From Armatimonadota bacterium (GTDB lineage: Bacteria > Sysuimicrobiota > Sysuimicrobiia > Sysuimicrobiales > Humicultoraceae), in NCBI GenBank assembly GCA_037443365.1, contig JBBIOM010000032.1:1-21833 (forward strand): a DNA stretch of 21,833 bases, given 5' to 3'. The position numbers were made by a program, and so were the translations under genes. This document shows, piece by piece, positions 2,343 through 21,833 of the stretch (the first letter of the stretch is position 1; the number at the start of each line of letters is the position of its first letter). A model generated the notes under the pieces. The model did not search any database and was not told the origin of the DNA. It worked only from the letters and a program-made list of their open reading frames with translations.

Positions 2343-3616
2343 ACCGCAAGATCCTCTACGTGATCCTGGACGGGGTCGGCGACCGGCCGATCGGGGCCCT
2401 GGGAGGCCGCACCCCGCTTGAGGCAGCGCACACACCGCATCTCGACCGCCTGGCAGAAGCGGGCCAGCAGGGGCTGGTCACAACAGTGGGGGAAGGCATC
2501 GCGCCCGAGTCGGACGTGGCGGTCGTGGCCATCCTCGGATACGATCCCCTGGTCTACCACGTGGGCCGGGGCCCGCTGGAGGCGCTGGGAGCCGGGCTGG
2601 ACTTCAGGGACGGCGACCTGGCGCTGCGCGGCAACTTCGCCACCGGCGGGGAGGGCGCGCTGATAGTTGACCGGCGCGTAGGACGCAACCTCTCCTCACA
2701 GGAGGCGCGTGTGCTGGCCGAGGCGGTCACCGCGCAGATCACGCTCGAGAGCGCGCCCGCCAGGGTCGTGGCGTCCGCCACGATCGGCCACCGCTGCGCG
2801 GTGGTCTTCTACCCGAGCGAGGGCCGCCTCAGCGCCCAGATCTCCAACACCGATCCGGCCTACGCGCGCGTAGGCGGCATGGGCGTCGCGCGCGCCACGT
2901 TCGGGAACCAGATCGAGGAGTGCGTGCCGCTCGATGGATCGGCGGAGGCGAGCACTGCCGCGGCGCTGGTGAACGAGTTCACCTGGAAGAGCCGCGCCGT
3001 CATGGACGCGCACCCGCTCAACGCCCGGCGGAGGGAAGCGGGCAGGCTGCCTGGCAACCTGATCCTGCTGCGCGACGGCGGCGACCACCTGCCCCAGGTT
3101 CCTTCCATAGAGGACCGCTTCGGCGTGCGGATGGGTTGCTTCGTGGAGATGCCGGTCGAGCGCGGGATCGCCCGGTACCTGGGGATGGGCGTGATCGAGA
3201 TCCCCCAGGGCGCATCGGCGAGCCGCGCCGAGGCGTACCGGGCCTGGGCCCGCCGGGCGCTCGAGGTGCTGCCCGAGTACGACGGCCTCTACATGCACCT
3301 CAAAGGGCCTGATGAGCCCGGGCACGACGGCGATTTCACAGCGAAGCAGCGCGTCATCGAGGAGATTGACGAGCACTTCTTCGGCGTGCTGCTCCCGGCG
3401 CTCGATCAGGACGGGGTTTTGATCGCGGTGACCGCGGACCACGCGACCCCCTGCGAGGTGCGAGGGCACTCACCCGATCCGGTTCCCCTGCTGGTCGGCG
3501 GCGGGGGCACGCGCCCGGACGGCGCCGGGCGATACACCGAGGCCGCGGCAGCCGGAGGCGCGCTGGGTCATGTCCGCGGCGTGGATATCATGCCGCTGCT
3601 GGTTGGCCGGAGATAG
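2339..3616 (+). CDS. apgM: 2,3-bisphosphoglycerate-independent phosphoglycerate mutase (archaeal/ApgM type)
   Basis: ILDGVGDRP, TPLEAAHTPHLD, PESDVA (phospho-Ser), GRGPLEALG, ALRGNF, HLKGPDEPGHDGD, TADHATP, HSPDPVP; ATGA overlap with dapF. Confidence 0.9.
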   Translation: MNRKILYVILDGVGDRPIGALGGRTPLEAAHTPHLDRLAEAGQQGLVTTVGEGIAPESDVAVVAILGYDPLVYHVGRGPLEALGAGLDFRDGDLALRGNFATGGEGALIVDRRVGRNLSSQEARVLAEAVTAQITLESAPARVVASATIGHRCAVVFYPSEGRLSAQISNTDPAYARVGGMGVARATFGNQIEECVPLDGSAEASTAAALVNEFTWKSRAVMDAHPLNARRREAGRLPGNLILLRDGGDHLPQVPSIEDRFGVRMGCFVEMPVERGIARYLGMGVIEIPQGASASRAEAYRAWARRALEVLPEYDGLYMHLKGPDEPGHDGDFTAKQRVIEEIDEHFFGVLLPALDQDGVLIAVTADHATPCEVRGHSPDPVPLLVGGGGTRPDGAGRYTEAAAAGGALGHVRGVDIMPLLVGRR

Positions 3617-3664: not shown

Positions 3665-4903
3665 ATGAAGGCCCGGACACGCCTCGACCTCTGGCTGCCA
3701 GGGATCTGCGCCGCGCGGTTCTTCATGACCCTGTTCTTCATGTCCTACGCGGCGTGCCTTCCTGTGCTGCGCGCGCAGTGGGGCATGTCGGCGGCCCAGG
3801 CCGGGTTGGTGTCCACCGGGTTCCAGGCCGGCTACGCGATCTCCCTGCTGGGGTTCTCGTGGCTGGCCGACCGGGTCGGTTCCCGGCGGATCTTCCTTCT
3901 GTCGTCCGCGCTCAGCACCGTGACGGCGATAGCGTTCGCGCTGTTCGCGCGCTCGTACCTCTCCGGGCTGGCTCTGTTCACACTCGCCGCCCTTGCCCAG
4001 GGCGGCACTTACTCCACGGCCATCATGCTCGTTTCAGACCGCCACCGCTCGCACAGCCGGGGCGCGGCCGTCGGCTGGTTGATCGCCTCGTCATCGCTGA
4101 GCTACGGCGCCTCGCTGCTCCTGGCAGGCGCGGTGCTGTCGCGGGGCGGTTATGAGAAGGCGTTTCTGGTGACGGCCGCGGGGCCGCTCGTGGGCGCGCT
4201 GATCGCATGGCTGGTGCTGCGGGAGACCCCGAACGTGATCCACCCTCGCGTCGAAGGGTCGGGCGCCTCGGCCGAGTTGCTGCGCAACCCGCGCGCCGCG
4301 CGCCTGACCGTCGGGTACGTTGGGCACTCCTGGGAACTGCTCGGGATGTGGGCGTGGACGCCGGCCTTCGTGGCCTCCAGCCTGGCTGCCTCCGGCGCGG
4401 TGACGCTGCGTGCGGCGGAGCTCGGCGCCTACGTGGCGGCCTCATTTCACGTCATGGGCCTGGTGTCGTCGTCAGCCATGGGATACCTGTCAGACAGGCT
4501 GGGGCGCCGCACTGTCATGCTTGCGCTGGCCGCCGCGAGTGCCGCGTGCTCGTTTGCCTTCGGGTGGCTGGTGGGAGGGCCGCTCCTGGTGATCGCCCTC
4601 GTGGGCGCGGTCTACGGCTTCACCGCGCTGGGCGACTCCCCGGTGCTGTCGGCGGCCCTGACCGAGGCCGTGCGCCCCGCATACCTCGGCTCGGTCCTGG
4701 CCGTCCGGTCGCTCGCCGGATTCGGCGCCGGCGCGATCGCGCCGGCCGTCTTCGGCATGGTGCTGGACGCGGCCAACCCTGCTGGATCGCATGCCTCGGG
4801 CTGGGGCTGGGCCTTCGCGGTCCTCGGCGTGGGCGGGCTCGTCGCGGTGCTGTCTGCCTGGGGTCTGCCGCGCATGCGGCCGGCATCCCCTCGGGAGGTG
4901 TGA
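3665..4903 (+). CDS. MFS transporter
   Basis: About 12 hydrophobic segments; motif A in both halves (WLADRVGSRR, GYLSDRLGRR); GYVGHSWEL motif. Confidence 0.9.
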   Translation: MKARTRLDLWLPGICAARFFMTLFFMSYAACLPVLRAQWGMSAAQAGLVSTGFQAGYAISLLGFSWLADRVGSRRIFLLSSALSTVTAIAFALFARSYLSGLALFTLAALAQGGTYSTAIMLVSDRHRSHSRGAAVGWLIASSSLSYGASLLLAGAVLSRGGYEKAFLVTAAGPLVGALIAWLVLRETPNVIHPRVEGSGASAELLRNPRAARLTVGYVGHSWELLGMWAWTPAFVASSLAASGAVTLRAAELGAYVAASFHVMGLVSSSAMGYLSDRLGRRTVMLALAAASAACSFAFGWLVGGPLLVIALVGAVYGFTALGDSPVLSAALTEAVRPAYLGSVLAVRSLAGFGAGAIAPAVFGMVLDAANPAGSHASGWGWAFAVLGVGGLVAVLSAWGLPRMRPASPREV

Positions 4904-4908
4904 TCGGC

Positions 4909-5403
4909 GTGGATCAACCTGAGATACCCAACAGATGGCCAGGGCAATGCTACGGCTGCTCGCCGCGCAACCCGTTGGGGCTCCGATTGCGCTTCTGGCG
5001 CTCAGAGACAGGCTGCTTCACCCGGTACGTGATCCCCGAGCACCTCTGCGGCTTCGATGGGGTTGCCCACGGCGGCGTCATCGCGGCGATTCTGGACGAG
5101 GTGTCGGCCTGGACCGTCATCGCCTGCCTGGGCCGGCTCGCGATCACCCGCGAGATCTCGATCCGCTACCATCGGCCCGTGCCCACAGGCGTTGAGATCA
5201 GGGCGGAGGGGCAGATCGTAAGGCGCGACGACAGGAGCGCGGTCGTGCGCGCGCGCATGACGCTGTCGGGGGGCCCTGCGGACGAGGTGCTGGCCGTGAG
5301 CACGAGCGCCTGGGCCCTGCCGAAGCTCTCGAGCATCGCCAGGATGACGGGGCTGGATGAGCAGGCCCTGAGCGAGTACCTCGGGGCGATGGCTCCGAGC
5401 TAG
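4909..5403 (+). CDS. PaaI-family hotdog-fold thioesterase
   Basis: CYGCSPRNPLGLRL, GFDGVAHGGVIAAILDE, ISIRYHRPVP. Start GTG 4909 (GGAGGTG upstream) or GTG 4900 (overlaps the MFS stop); ORF-track 4207 is over-extended. Confidence 0.85.
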   Translation: MDQPEIPNRWPGQCYGCSPRNPLGLRLRFWRSETGCFTRYVIPEHLCGFDGVAHGGVIAAILDEVSAWTVIACLGRLAITREISIRYHRPVPTGVEIRAEGQIVRRDDRSAVVRARMTLSGGPADEVLAVSTSAWALPKLSSIARMTGLDEQALSEYLGAMAPS

Positions 5404-12372: not shown

Positions 12373-12397
12373 TGTATTGTAGTCCAACTGAATAGTA

Positions 12398-12540
12398 GAC
12401 CTTCAGGGCAGGGTGAGCCGGCAGCGCGAGCGCCGGCAATTCCCGATCGGCGGTAGAGCCCGCGAGCCCGGCTGCGTGAGCAGCCAGGCAGATCCGGTGA
12501 GACTCCGGGGCCGACGGTATAGTCCGGATGGAAGAAGGTC
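12398..12540 (+). ncRNA. FMN riboswitch (RFN element)
   Basis: P1 GACCTTC/GAAGGTC; AGGGCAGGGTGA..AATTCCCGATCGGCGGT..AGCCCGCGAG..GCAGATCCGGTGAGACTCCGGGGCCGACGGTATAGTCCGGATGGAAGAAG; upstream of ribD. Confidence 0.97.
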
Positions 12541-12630
12541 AGGATTGGAGCCCGGGATTCGGTCGCCGGGACCAATGGCGCGCTTCGCCTGCGCCATGGC
12601 CTCCAGCCCGAACCCGCGTTCCGATGCGCC

Positions 12631-19079: not shown

Positions 19080-19591
19080 GGGACCGCTGCGAAGAGGTGC
19101 TGGAGCGCCTGGTCGAAGGGGTGACCGGCACGGTCCTGCCCGACGAGCGCGCCGCGCTCGCCCGGCACCTGGCCGTCTGCGAGCGCTGCCGCGATGAGGC
19201 GGCCTCGATTGAGGCCGCTGCCGTGCGCCTGCGCTCCGCGGGCAGGTTCGTGGCGCCGCCCGGATTCTGGGAGGAGTTCATGCGGCGGCTCGCCGCGCGC
19301 ATCGAGGAGGAGCGGGTGCCGGTGGGCGCCCGCCTCCGTCGGTGGCTGGCCTCCCCGCGCCACGCGTTGGGCACGGCGGTGGTTACCGCGGTCACGGTGC
19401 TGGCGGTCTTCGCCGCGGTGCGCACCGCGCCTCCTGCTCCTGACCCGGTGGCGGTGCGCGCGCGCGGGCTGGTCACCGCCACGATGACGTCGAGTCTCCC
19501 CTCGCTGGGAGCGACGCTCGACATCTGGCGTGCCGGGTTGTCGCAGGAGAGCGGCGAAGATGCGGACCGGCGGGAGAGGCAAGGCCGATGA
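19076..19591 (+). CDS. Zinc-binding (ZAS) membrane anti-sigma factor
   Basis: HLAVCERC (HxxxCxxC), one TM helix, ATGA overlap with the sigma gene. Confidence 0.85.
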   Translation: MRDRCEEVLERLVEGVTGTVLPDERAALARHLAVCERCRDEAASIEAAAVRLRSAGRFVAPPGFWEEFMRRLAARIEEERVPVGARLRRWLASPRHALGTAVVTAVTVLAVFAAVRTAPPAPDPVAVRARGLVTATMTSSLPSLGATLDIWRAGLSQESGEDADRRERQGR

Positions 19592-20082
19592 TCGCCCCCA
19601 GCCGCCTCGCCCCTGCCCTCCTGATCGCCGCGCTCGCCCTTGCCCTGCCCGCATCCGGGCAGGAGCCGCAGACGCATCAGGGCGAGCGCATCATCGAGGC
19701 GATCTTCATCTGGCGCCTGGTGGACGAACTCGACCTCTCGGAGGCGCAGATCGCCCAGGTCTTCCCCCGCGTCAAGGCCCTGAAGAACATTCGCCTCGAG
19801 ATGGGGCGGCGTGTGCCGCAACTGCTGCGCGAGATCCGGCAGTTGATGCGCTCGCCGTCGCGCGACGAGGAGACGCTGCGCGTCAAGGTGGCCGAGCTGA
19901 GCCAGGTGCGGGGCCAGATGGAGGCGCGCCGCCGCCAGCAGCTCCAGCTCATCGCGGCGGCCCTCACCCCGGAGCAGATGGCACGGTTCGCGCTGATCCA
20001 GGAGACGTTCGAGGTCGAGACCCTGCGGTTGATGCAGGAGATGCGCCGCATCGTCGAGGAGCAACCGCCCCCGCGGCGCTAG
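19588..20082 (+). CDS. Periplasmic Spy/CpxP/ZraP-like helical protein
   Basis: Signal peptide; LDLSEAQ and LTPEQ (LTxxQ-like) motifs; ATGA overlap with the anti-sigma gene. Confidence 0.7.
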   Translation: MIAPSRLAPALLIAALALALPASGQEPQTHQGERIIEAIFIWRLVDELDLSEAQIAQVFPRVKALKNIRLEMGRRVPQLLREIRQLMRSPSRDEETLRVKVAELSQVRGQMEARRRQQLQLIAAALTPEQMARFALIQETFEVETLRLMQEMRRIVEEQPPPRR

Positions 20083-20115
20083 GTCCCGCCTACATCCAGC
20101 GGTCGGAAGCCGGCG

Positions 20116-20274
20116 ATGCTGCACTACCTGGACGCCGCACAGGGCTGCGGCATCGGCATCACTTGCTCAAGACATCCCTTCCGCCACTCGTTTGCCACAT
20201 ACCTGCGCCCGATGGACAGGCTCCGCCGATCGGCAAGGAGGGGGCAAAGGACGGTCCCGGGGATGCTAGGCTGA
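20116..20274 (+). pseudogene. Degraded tyrosine recombinase (integron-integrase-like) C-terminal remnant
   Basis: Translates to MLHYLDAAQGCGIGITCSRHPFRHSFATYL...QRTVPGMLG*; matches the HxxRHSFATHL and RTVQELLGH boxes. Below the ORF-track length cut-off. Confidence 0.65.
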
Positions 20275-20374
20275 CCGGCGAAGCAGCAGAAAACCCCGCA
20301 AGGGGGGTGCGCGGGATGGCGAGGGTTCAGTCCAGGCGGGCGATTGCGGGGAAGGAGCTCCCGGTTCCCTAGCG

Positions 20375-20431
20375 TGCTAGACTGATACGGGCGGGATGTT
20401 AGACTGACCAGTCTAATCACGAGTTAGCCCG
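20375..20431 (+). mobile_element. attI-like integron recombination site
   Basis: Inverse core GTCTAAT (20411-17) + 5 nt CACGA + core GTTAGCC (20423-29); upstream direct repeats TGCTAGACTGA (20375-85) and TGTTAGACTGA (20397-407). Confidence 0.7.
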
Positions 20432-21770
20432 AGCTGGTGACATTGATGGGGGGATGGAAGTTGCCTGCATACTCGATAGACGATGCAGCGGTCTCGCGGT
20501 GGCTGCCCACAACGCTTCGATCCCAAGGAAAGGATGAGGCATACCTCGAGCGACTGATCGCTAGCGACCCTCTCGTTCTGGGCCTCGATCCCTACGTGAC
20601 CGGCATCGGCACCAGCTTCGCGGTGTTTCAGCAGAGCTGGCTGGATTCTCCGTCGACGCGCACGCTCAGGCCGGACGTGGTCCTACTGAGTGAGACCGGA
20701 CACATCGTCGTGGTCGAGGTCAAGCTCGACGACAATCCGGAGCTGCGAGATCGTCGCGTCATTTCGCAAATCGTTGACTACGCCGCAGCTGTAGCGAATC
20801 TCGATGAACATGCGTTGACCGCATGGCTTGGAGGATCGCAGGACACCTGCTGGCTGGACGTCGTAAGGCGCGTGTTCCCCGGCGCACACGACGTGGAGCG
20901 CCTAGCGGCTGCCCTAGCGGATCGGATTTCTCGAGCCGACATTCACCTCGTGGTTGCATGCGACGCAGCACCAGTCGGCCTACGCGACACGATTCAGCTC
21001 ATCTCAGCGCAGGCGGCGCTTGGCGAGTTCCAGTTGCACGTTGTTGAGCTCACCCCATACGTCAACACGAACGAACCTGGACGCATTCTCATCGTTCCGC
21101 GAGAGACGGCTCGAACTGAAATCGTCTCGCGAACCGCGGTGACGGTTCGACGCGAAGAGGGCGTCGGCGTGGGCGTTACGGTTGTGGCATCCTCGCCGAA
21201 GGAGGTTACTGAGGCCATCCAGCGGACAAAGCGCGGCCGCGAGATTCGACCGGAGTTTGAAACGCTACTTGATGCGTACGATCTCAGCGCGCCGGATGAC
21301 TTGCAGACGTCTGGTGGTGCCACCGGCTACCGTCAGATCAAGGTGCCCGGCTGGCCGGGTTTCATACACTACGAGCTCCTGGACCGGGGAGGCGACCCGG
21401 CGGTTGTCGGGGCAGAACTCCATTTGGAAGGCGGAGAACATCCAGACCTTCGCGGGTTCCTTGAGGATCTCGCAGCATCGCTGCAGCCGAGCTTCCCTGG
21501 CTTGCAGTACTCTCCGAAGTGGTTCAAAGGATGCCGGCTTGTGATTCCCGTTCCCATGGCAGACGTGAATGGCGCTGTGGACGCGATGACCGCGCTCATT
21601 GCTGCAACGCGAGAGCGCGTCGACCATGAGCTCAGAGAATCCGGCGTCTTGGAGGATGAAGGCGCATCTGAGCCGGGCTAACAATGGCATCGACGCCGAC
21701 AGACCGCGGCAGTGAGGTAGTCTGAGTCGCAAGCGTGGCGGGCCGCGGTCTGCGGGTCATGCCACAGACG
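20424..21770 (+). mobile_element. Integron gene cassette 1
   Basis: Bounded by G/TT crossover points at 20423/24 and 21770/71; 5' GTTAGCCCG is the exact reverse complement of the attC left end CGGGCTAAC; single ORF fills the unit; visibly lower GC than the backbone. Confidence 0.85.
20437..21681 (+). CDS. PD-(D/E)xK nuclease-domain protein (NucS/restriction-endonuclease-like) with unknown C-terminal domain
   Basis: E..LERLIASDP...RPDVVLL...IVVVEVK...VISQIVDYA (E, PD, ExK, QxxxY). Start could be GTG 20437, ATG 20446 or TTG 20461 (GGGGGA SD). Confidence 0.75.
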   Translation: MTLMGGWKLPAYSIDDAAVSRWLPTTLRSQGKDEAYLERLIASDPLVLGLDPYVTGIGTSFAVFQQSWLDSPSTRTLRPDVVLLSETGHIVVVEVKLDDNPELRDRRVISQIVDYAAAVANLDEHALTAWLGGSQDTCWLDVVRRVFPGAHDVERLAAALADRISRADIHLVVACDAAPVGLRDTIQLISAQAALGEFQLHVVELTPYVNTNEPGRILIVPRETARTEIVSRTAVTVRREEGVGVGVTVVASSPKEVTEAIQRTKRGREIRPEFETLLDAYDLSAPDDLQTSGGATGYRQIKVPGWPGFIHYELLDRGGDPAVVGAELHLEGGEHPDLRGFLEDLAASLQPSFPGLQYSPKWFKGCRLVIPVPMADVNGAVDAMTALIAATRERVDHELRESGVLEDEGASEPG

Positions 21771-21776
21771 TTCGGC
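21676..21776 (+). mobile_element. attC site (101 bp)
   Basis: R'' GGCTAAC overlaps the TAA stop; arms TGGCAT/ATGCCA, GAC/GTC, CCG/CGG, CAGACCGCGGC/GCCGCGGTCTG; R' GTTCGGC. Confidence 0.9.
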
Positions 21777-21788
21777 GCGAGAAGAGAG

Positions 21789-21833
21789 ATGCAAGATACC
21801 TGCCGGCTCTATACGGACTTGGCGTGGCTTTGG
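21789..21833 (+). CDS. Start of cassette 2 ORF (truncated by window end); possibly a SAM-dependent methyltransferase
   Basis: ATG 12 nt after the attC with purine-rich GAGAAGAGAG upstream; MQDTCRLYTDLAWLW. Product guess rests on only 15 residues. Confidence 0.45.
   Translation, partial: MQDTCRLYTDLAWLW

Follow-up and report, generated by a model that had tools for sequence, protein, structure and literature searches.

Reverse integrons, in which intI points towards attI and the cassettes, crossover occurs at GTT and the cassettes are bounded by attC, are described in Treponema denticola (PMC3607928, PMC4909258, PMC4889954), and the inverted-integrase group is reported to be paraphyletic (PMC4889954). 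The loci known as CALINs hold two or more attC sites without an intact intI nearby; intI pseudogenes are reported near 15 of 279 of them, with intI elsewhere in the genome (Cury et al. 2016, PMC4889954). In integrons of classes 1 and 2, attI fragments are reported inside arrays as delta-attI cassettes (PMC12901181). Each ingredient of the locus described here has a precedent in these reverse integrons, CALINs with pseudogenes and delta-attI units. The papers searched, mostly outside subscription journals, included none on integrons in Sysuimicrobiota/CSP1-3, on an integron combined with a HARP domain, or on intI behind an unlinked 16S gene, nor any that joins these ingredients to a 16S-anchored, N-terminally extended IntI in this phylum.

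The locus occupies the right-hand end of the window, by which we mean the whole stretch of 21,833 nucleotides that was analysed. It has the Treponema features just listed, and differs from the integrons that those sources describe in belonging to another phylum, in having its cassettes spread over several short arrays per genome where those form a single long one, and in having an N-terminally extended IntI, an intI anchored behind an unlinked 16S gene and a decayed local intI. It likewise has the features of a CALIN with an intI pseudogene, and differs from those covered in that report in that its attI has been retained and identified, and in that different first positions occur in the population. 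No delta-attI fragment is present in the window itself. We regard the integron anatomy as practically certain, and favour, with a probability of roughly 0.6, a reading of the window as a satellite reverse-integron platform that is still served in trans.

Genomes are labelled G000 (the source genome), G001 to G007 (same genus) and by other G numbers (the other relatives searched). An earlier, sequence-only reading had called the host apparently non-proteobacterial, and rightly so: the host probably belongs to Sysuimicrobiota (CSP1-3), and the IntI proteins of same-genus and same-family relatives group with the IntI of a Ca. Fervidifonticultor record. Housekeeping genes fill the window up to 20082 and end in an ECF sigma trio, whose accessory gene matches Pfam PF13801, with PF04542 and PF13490 upstream, and is present in 26 of 41 genomes searched. 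Further to the left an ordinary FMN riboswitch (12395-12543) lies ahead of a riboflavin operon.

Anatomy of the platform and its first cassette

Table 1. Features of the window, in order of position.
Feature	Position	Strand	Description
Window	entire contig C32 (JBBIOM010000032.1)		bin of 2.22 Mb, 97.7% complete
Last gene of ECF sigma / anti-sigma / accessory trio	19588..20082	+	left chromosomal neighbour, outside the element
Left copy of 43-bp direct repeat	20076..20118	-	3' end and stop codon of ChsH2-type OB-fold gene
intI 3' remnant	20120..20230	+	towards attI; three pieces, frameshift, two internal deletions
Upstream box A and place of probable cassette promoter -10	20264..20292	+	box A is TGCTAGGCTG
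Two attI direct-repeat boxes	20375..20406	+	TGCTAGACTG, TGTTAGACTG; 22 bp apart
attI simple site	20411..20429	+	L and R boxes around a 5-bp spacer; crossover point G20423/T20424
Cassette 1, complete	20424-21770		gene for predicted PD-(D/E)XK-type nuclease, with its own attC
Cassette 1 gene, 411-414 aa	20437..21681	+	predicted N-terminal PD-(D/E)XK nuclease domain, NucS/EndoMS-like fold; C-terminal type III chaperone/YbjN-like fold
attC of cassette 1	21676..21776	+	R'' 21676-82, L'' 21688-95, L' 21755-61, R' 21770-76
Start of cassette 2, SAM-dependent methyltransferase	21771..21833	+	last 55 bp overlap contig C45

On re-reading the sequence we found every motif named in the sequence-only reading, each at the position given there. 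The simple site that it had proposed consists of GTCTAAT (20411-17), CACGA and GTTAGCCCG (20423-31), and CGGGCTAAC (21674-82) is the exact reverse complement of the latter. The 9-mer is not unique, having seven copies over both strands in 2.2 Mb; a junction complement recurs at the next cassettes, over 7 bp at cassette 2 (in the long allele described below) and over 11 bp at MazEF. While the simple site stands, the early description of attI omitted three further boxes upstream: those of the form TGYTAGRCTG at about -160, -51 and -29 of attI, accompanied in most of the platforms compared by a TATAAT at about -140. The direct-repeat boxes are kept in 22 related attI sites, across which conservation stops at GTT (mean 0.84 upstream of it against 0.41 from +8, over 23 rows with the window counted twice), and in relatives the site adjoins an intact intI. 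The metagenome loci L108/L117 and L113/L114 carry the same attI sequence before different first cassettes, and the exact 28-base attI had no match in the metagenome contigs searched. Class 1 attI1 (L217) has, as here, a simple site with a 5-bp spacer and two upstream ATGTTA-type repeats about 20 bp apart. The present site differs in that the nearer repeat is closer to the L box, another box accompanies the probable promoter some 160 bp upstream, and the integrase gene stands on the 5' side, co-oriented rather than divergent.

The -10 place reads TATAAT in 13 of the 20 distinct platforms compared and a variant in three, with none found in another three; this hexamer is probably the -10 of a cassette promoter. 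In the window the same place holds a decayed hexamer, CAGAAA, and a consensus scan of 19900-21833 found no sigma-70-type promoter. Because the platform's own -10 is decayed, we propose that cassette 1 may be expressed by read-through from the ECF operon. The segment 20290-20350 was considered as an IntI C-terminus, which alignment ruled out; it is the spacer between the promoter region and attI.

The recombinase-box remnant retains the pieces HYxDRRTGxRHRHHL (the IntI-specific insert), HxFRHSFATxL and PMDxL (the C-terminus). In other IntIs, stacked histidines of the insert are reported to bind the extrahelical T (PMC3053210). No intact IntI stands in cis: about 110 bp are left, with the insert motif kept and the catalytic tyrosine region gone, spanned in the gapped alignment by the second deletion. 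An HMM alone does not establish the earlier assignment of this remnant to intI, since it does not separate it from XerD (E 0.036 against 0.063); the assignment stands because the remnant aligns, at the nucleotide level, to the intact intI of G020, G002 and G028, and peptide matches agree. The identical deletions occur in G002 and a shorter piece in G004. Just after the intact intI stop in G020, G028 and G002, the DNA has 66-73% identity to window 20260-20428. IntI scores over the TIGR02249 cut-off in 14 of 41 genomes searched. Because the remnant points to attI, as the intact gene does in relatives, the locus is a reverse integron, with intI co-oriented with and upstream of attI and the cassettes. 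In a quick tree of 56 rows (one locus excluded by the length filter, one label assigned by eye, no Treponema row), 21 of the 23 reverse-labelled rows fall on a single branch with an SH-aLRT of 93, and orientation changes number 3, against 16.4 with shuffled labels.

The imperfect palindrome at 21676-21776 does measure 101 bp, and it has the paired R and L boxes and, on the bottom strand, the extrahelical bases of an integron attC (21691, 21695 and 21699). The bottom strand folds at z = -3.85, one of 200 shuffles being equally good, and leaves G, C and T unpaired at positions 16, 20 and 24. This spacing is the same as in VCR2/1, for which G16, T20 and T24 are reported, two or three such bases being usual in general (Bouvier et al., PMC2727003). 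The site was thus rightly recognised, and one detail needed correction: its L'-R' spacer is 8 bp rather than the usual 6, a length also seen in 6 of the 23 sites behind our attC covariance model. Those sites came from other genomes and metagenome contigs and were picked through an arm-pairing score; because they were hand-chosen out of a longer list, pair counts on them are partly circular. In an unfiltered search over 52 kb of the source genome, the window's site was the best match to the model (33.3 bits, E 1.2e-5), followed within the window by one of 12.7 bits. The top five matches were this site, two on C45 and two on C50, all others falling below 15 bits. A genome-wide search that scored 150 of 3999 candidates had missed the window's site, which the unfiltered search recovered. 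A naive genome-wide scan for attC returned 647 matches, 91 of them strict, and was dropped as unspecific in this GC-rich genome.

Cassette 1 is lower in GC than the remainder of the window (61.5% against 69.9%), as had been noticed at first sight. Its product is predicted to belong to the PD-(D/E)XK nuclease superfamily by a conserved motif and a restriction-endonuclease-like fold: the PD...ExK residues are at least 90% conserved among 40 aligned sequences, and in the structure model (pLDDT 86) the N-terminal domain is nearest to NucS (2vld, Z 10.1, rmsd 2.5, 108 residues aligned). NucS/EndoMS-like nucleases have this N-domain fold and catalytic motif in common with cassette 1, which differs in its additional C-terminal chaperone/YbjN-like fold, matched at a middling Z of 8-8.8. 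A single-sequence model of the N-domain (pLDDT 45) was discarded, and a Foldseek search found nothing at E 0.001. Neither Pfam nor NCBIfam has a family that matched at threshold, and 42 homologues, none of them named, were found among 8000 candidates scored. The PADLOC candidate PDC-S11 matches weakly (E 4e-6) over about 80 of 358 profile positions, or about 100 residues, and the full-length profile match that marks its members is lacking. Defence cassettes in integrons have been reported. Given the fold, the weak PDC-S11 match and such defence cassettes, the protein may act against foreign DNA of phages or plasmids. Cassette 1 found no match in the viral contigs searched, and neither cassette 1 nor cassette 2 found one in 93 other genomes of the phylum. 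Three same-genus relatives have a bare site, and the nuclease gene is thus not in fixed synteny among the genomes compared.

Chance motifs or an assembly artefact, for instance a XerD fragment and a mis-joined repeat, would account for an HMM that does not separate the remnant from XerD and for 91 strict naive attC matches in a GC-rich genome. This is scarcely credible, and we consider it already refuted: the independent covariance model finds attC, the remnant has the IntI-specific insert, 23 of 94 genomes of the phylum have the attI motif while the reversed pattern matched nowhere, and both allele paths described below are also present in a separate assembly of the run.

An integrase gene behind the 16S gene

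Over the TIGR02249 cut-off, the 97.7%-complete assembly yields no complete intI, nor any 3' half besides the remnant. The array had been described as having lost its own integrase, which is true of the decayed local intI. A cognate 5' half-gene exists on contig C40, however, and the loss therefore does not mean that the platform is inert. The C40 gene runs for 200 codons, with 88% identity to G020's intact IntI, before it is cut off by the contig end, and it lies directly behind the 16S gene, the same place as in G020; the 23S gene stands on a different contig. Since G002 combines the remnant with an intact 16S-linked intI, we set aside a split of one gene into C40 and the remnant.

Within the family, an intI or its remnant lies at most 3.5 kb downstream of 16S on the same strand in 10 of 11 informative genomes, among which kin are not independent; 13 genomes had a 16S match, two of them uninformative (5' part only; contig ending in the gene). 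The exception is G018, where intI follows a duplicated 16S 3' end and not the main gene. The link is also seen in G019, G022 and G044, genomes found by way of intI, but in none of the four informative genomes of other families. Part of the 16S-linked IntIs are of a second type that lacks the extension described below, and the extended type lies away from 16S in six genomes. At the loci examined (L010, at G000:C40:1-800; L084-L087, L099, L201-L203), 16S is separate from 23S in this family; about 11.6 kb, comprising the integron and other genes, stand between them in G011, where 23S has its own promoter-like site.

The cognate IntI has about 100 extra N-terminal residues that include a domain of some 70 residues (L085:5171-5395; L010:378-602). 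This domain appears weakly HARP-like: matches to HARP (PF07443) are found in 10 of 15 extended sequences scanned, with E 0.0005-0.19 and all under the 25-bit cut-off, and the sole match of its profile to the PDB is SMARCAL1 (4o66, E 0.1). An Atlas search with the extension gave only unnamed matches, under 0.9. The extension was found in 17 of 94 genomes and is followed by an integrase domain in all 20 proteins of one set; among the best 150 representatives this holds for 47, and many of the remainder are short fragments. It also occurs on XerD-like integrases, and is therefore not special to integrons, and in two to four copies in unrelated long proteins.

Several observations were made beside these genes. 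Group I introns lie near the 16S 3' end of relatives (L084:4716-4976, L111:175-442, L085 about 4665-4925; RF00028 over the cut-off in L084 and L111) and are absent there from the 16S gene of the source genome. Duplicated 16S 3' ends that start at the intron insertion point, and an open frame that we take to be LAGLIDADG-like, were seen across L205 (G018:C204), L214 (G018:C261), L099 (G023:C7) and L087:786-1589. The frame separates the two copies in G018 and follows 16S in G011; the duplicated ends and this frame are perhaps a free-standing homing endonuclease element. In the near-complete genome G014, a transposase-like frame interrupts what remains of the 16S-linked intI on C1 (L203:1045-2354). 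Its attI survives, another attI is present elsewhere, and a full IntI was looked for without success. The source genome also has a second decayed reverse integron with a different IntI type (G000:C50:8552-11228, L009), which runs off its contig and whose cassettes encode a trypsin-like protease and a Tri1-like ADP-ribosylhydrolase. The corresponding chromosomal place in G002 carries an attI of the first type.

The array, its flanking repeats and its two alleles

The suggestion that the window ends in the head of a chromosomal cassette array proved correct: further cassettes and two attC sites lie on the adjoining contig C45. Its order is methyltransferase, attC, MazEF, attC, a small gene with a decayed RelE-like piece, and the right repeat, the labels antitoxin (for the small gene) and RelE-like being read off the translation. 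The array thus has only about four units, closed by the ChsH2-type OB-fold gene on the opposite strand, and the insert measures about 3.6 kb including cassette 1. Three attC sites over C32 and C45, with no intI over the cut-off and none intact nearby, agree with the earlier label of a CALIN-like array that has retained attI, which was incomplete in that it lacked the reverse orientation, the approximately four units and the two alleles.

The left and right copies of the repeat are identical at 38 of 44 positions, the right copy being the last 43 bp of the intact OB-fold gene on C45. The OB-fold gene abuts the ECF trio without an insert in G001, G005 and G006, as well as in G011 and G020. Among the seven same-genus genomes, those three have the empty site and two (G002, G004) have other contents, while the anchor gene found no match in G003 and G007. 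In G002 the same repeat brackets a 2.2-kb array with other cassettes and an intI remnant without attI, and the platform is therefore not always retained. In G004 the window's site (C99, L039:1040-2495) holds a shorter intI piece, an IS110 remnant (labelled by reading the sequence) and the terminal part of a second-type intI together with its platform; two integron types have thus come to this site.

A repeat of a gene 3' end resembles those of integrative elements, and here it is exactly the gene 3' end with its stop. A separate integrative element, with the 43-bp repeats as attL and attR and variation caused by island replacement, would fit this and the differing contents in G002 and G004, including the IS110 remnant and second integron type of the latter. 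It is quite improbable as an account of the whole locus, for no other recombinase gene lies between the repeats here or in G002, and a comparable repeat was found at one of 12 integron loci searched, which also leaves a bracketing repeat unsupported as a general feature. The two alleles, moreover, share both ends and differ only at attI, so that such an element may explain arrival but not variation. A general link to tRNA genes was likewise unsupported, tRNAs being found at one of 26 loci, 4 kb from intI.

Read in reverse, C45 has window 20373-20427 (55 bp of attI) leading directly into cassette 2; of the two alleles only one has cassette 1, and it is their coexistence that ends contig C32. 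In run X1, the probable source sample, depths are 35.3 for the upstream contig, 8.9 for the cassette-1 path, 21.3 for the joint of 20427 to 21779 and 39.5 for the downstream contig, depth not being a share of cells; this joint was seen in one of four runs, all from one study. At its junction the short allele has GTTAGGCAT, against the GTTCGGCGC that is expected from clean excision and that cassette 2 shows in the long allele. The two differ at three of nine bases, and the short allele carries GCAT between its two sides, which a single clean excision would not give. Only the long allele (GTTCGGCGC) matches the R'' of cassette 2 over 7 bases. Run X2 has a copy of cassette 1 in a 3280-base contig, 93.6% identical with 81 differences in 1263 bp; among the 37 differences listed, from 40 of 113 rows, 30 are at third codon positions. 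In runs X2-X4, copies of 21678-21772, the attC, and of the start of cassette 2 occur between different flanks.

Two strains of earlier divergence would give the same two-allele picture, and this weighs against service in trans. Both alleles might then be old, made by an earlier or passing integrase and now borne by coexisting strains, the short allele having perhaps arisen by microhomology deletion between similar R' regions. We think such a fossil somewhat unlikely. It would sit well with the non-canonical short junction, the decayed -10, the decayed last cassette and the lack of any assembled complete intI, but leaves attI intact and near consensus while everything upstream decayed, and places the left edge of the allele difference within the R box. 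Nor does it suit the perfect junction complements of 9 bp at cassette 1 and 11 bp at MazEF, or the one unbranched 5963-bp contig that leads into both alleles in X1, in which small differences may be collapsed.

A platform probably served in trans

Under the favoured reading of a satellite platform, a unit of intI, attI and cassette, belonging to the integron type resident in the family, would have inserted at the 3' end of the OB-fold gene with a 43-bp duplication, an origin of the repeats that we infer, before this species diverged from G002 and G004. The intI gene would then have been deleted to about 110 bp, leaving attI intact, and cassette 1 would have entered by attI x attC recombination at G/TT, which would have left parts of the divided attC core at 20423 and 21676. 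Variation at the first position would persist in the population, its likeliest agent being the cognate integrase directly behind the 16S gene on C40, presumably complete and active, which would act in trans and have made both alleles. Recognition of attI is said to be confined to its cognate integrase (PMC2095811), which fits an enzyme of the same type acting in trans, and cassette clusters are reported to be able to stay linked to an integrase elsewhere (Cury et al., PMC4889954). Against this reading stand the missing complete intI in the assembly, the three differing bases at the short junction, the remnant without attI in G002 and the negative promoter scan.

Platforms with attI and little or no intI also occur in G002, G005, G014, G017, G020, G024, G033, G042 and others. 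In G020 an intI-less platform is 97.6% identical over 165 bp, starting at box A, to the 16S-linked platform; conversion is as likely an origin as direct seeding because the flank resembles older platforms. In G058 (twice) and G061, attI fragments in arrays have their first bases precisely at a box GTT, that of the -51 or the -29 box, and are fused to attC (L221:400-445 and 3417-3462, G058:C28; L222:1631-1659, G061:C133). Because they begin at a box GTT, these fragments suggest that the upstream boxes can be crossover points. The delta-attI cassettes resemble them in lying inside arrays, but as reported there the fragment replaces attC (PMC12901181), whereas in G058 and G061 it follows a complete attC and starts from an upstream-box GTT. 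A more speculative and rather doubtful extension is a one-enzyme, many-platform integron, in which an IntI fused to a HARP-like ssDNA-binding domain, a helper in folding attC hairpins, and encoded behind an unlinked 16S gene would serve scattered attI platforms and help to seed them through GTT-box crossovers that lift attI, with or without its promoter, alongside a cassette; the window would be a platform caught exchanging a defence nuclease.

Besides a full attI model for the reverse integron of an uncultured phylum, the locus offers a fixed link of intI to a lone 16S gene, and an IntI that carries an additional N-terminal domain. Clusters of cassettes that lack an integrase are common, and whether they remain active in trans is a question raised in that context (PMC4889954). 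With a defined attI, an enzyme intact in relatives and two alleles, this question therefore becomes directly testable here.
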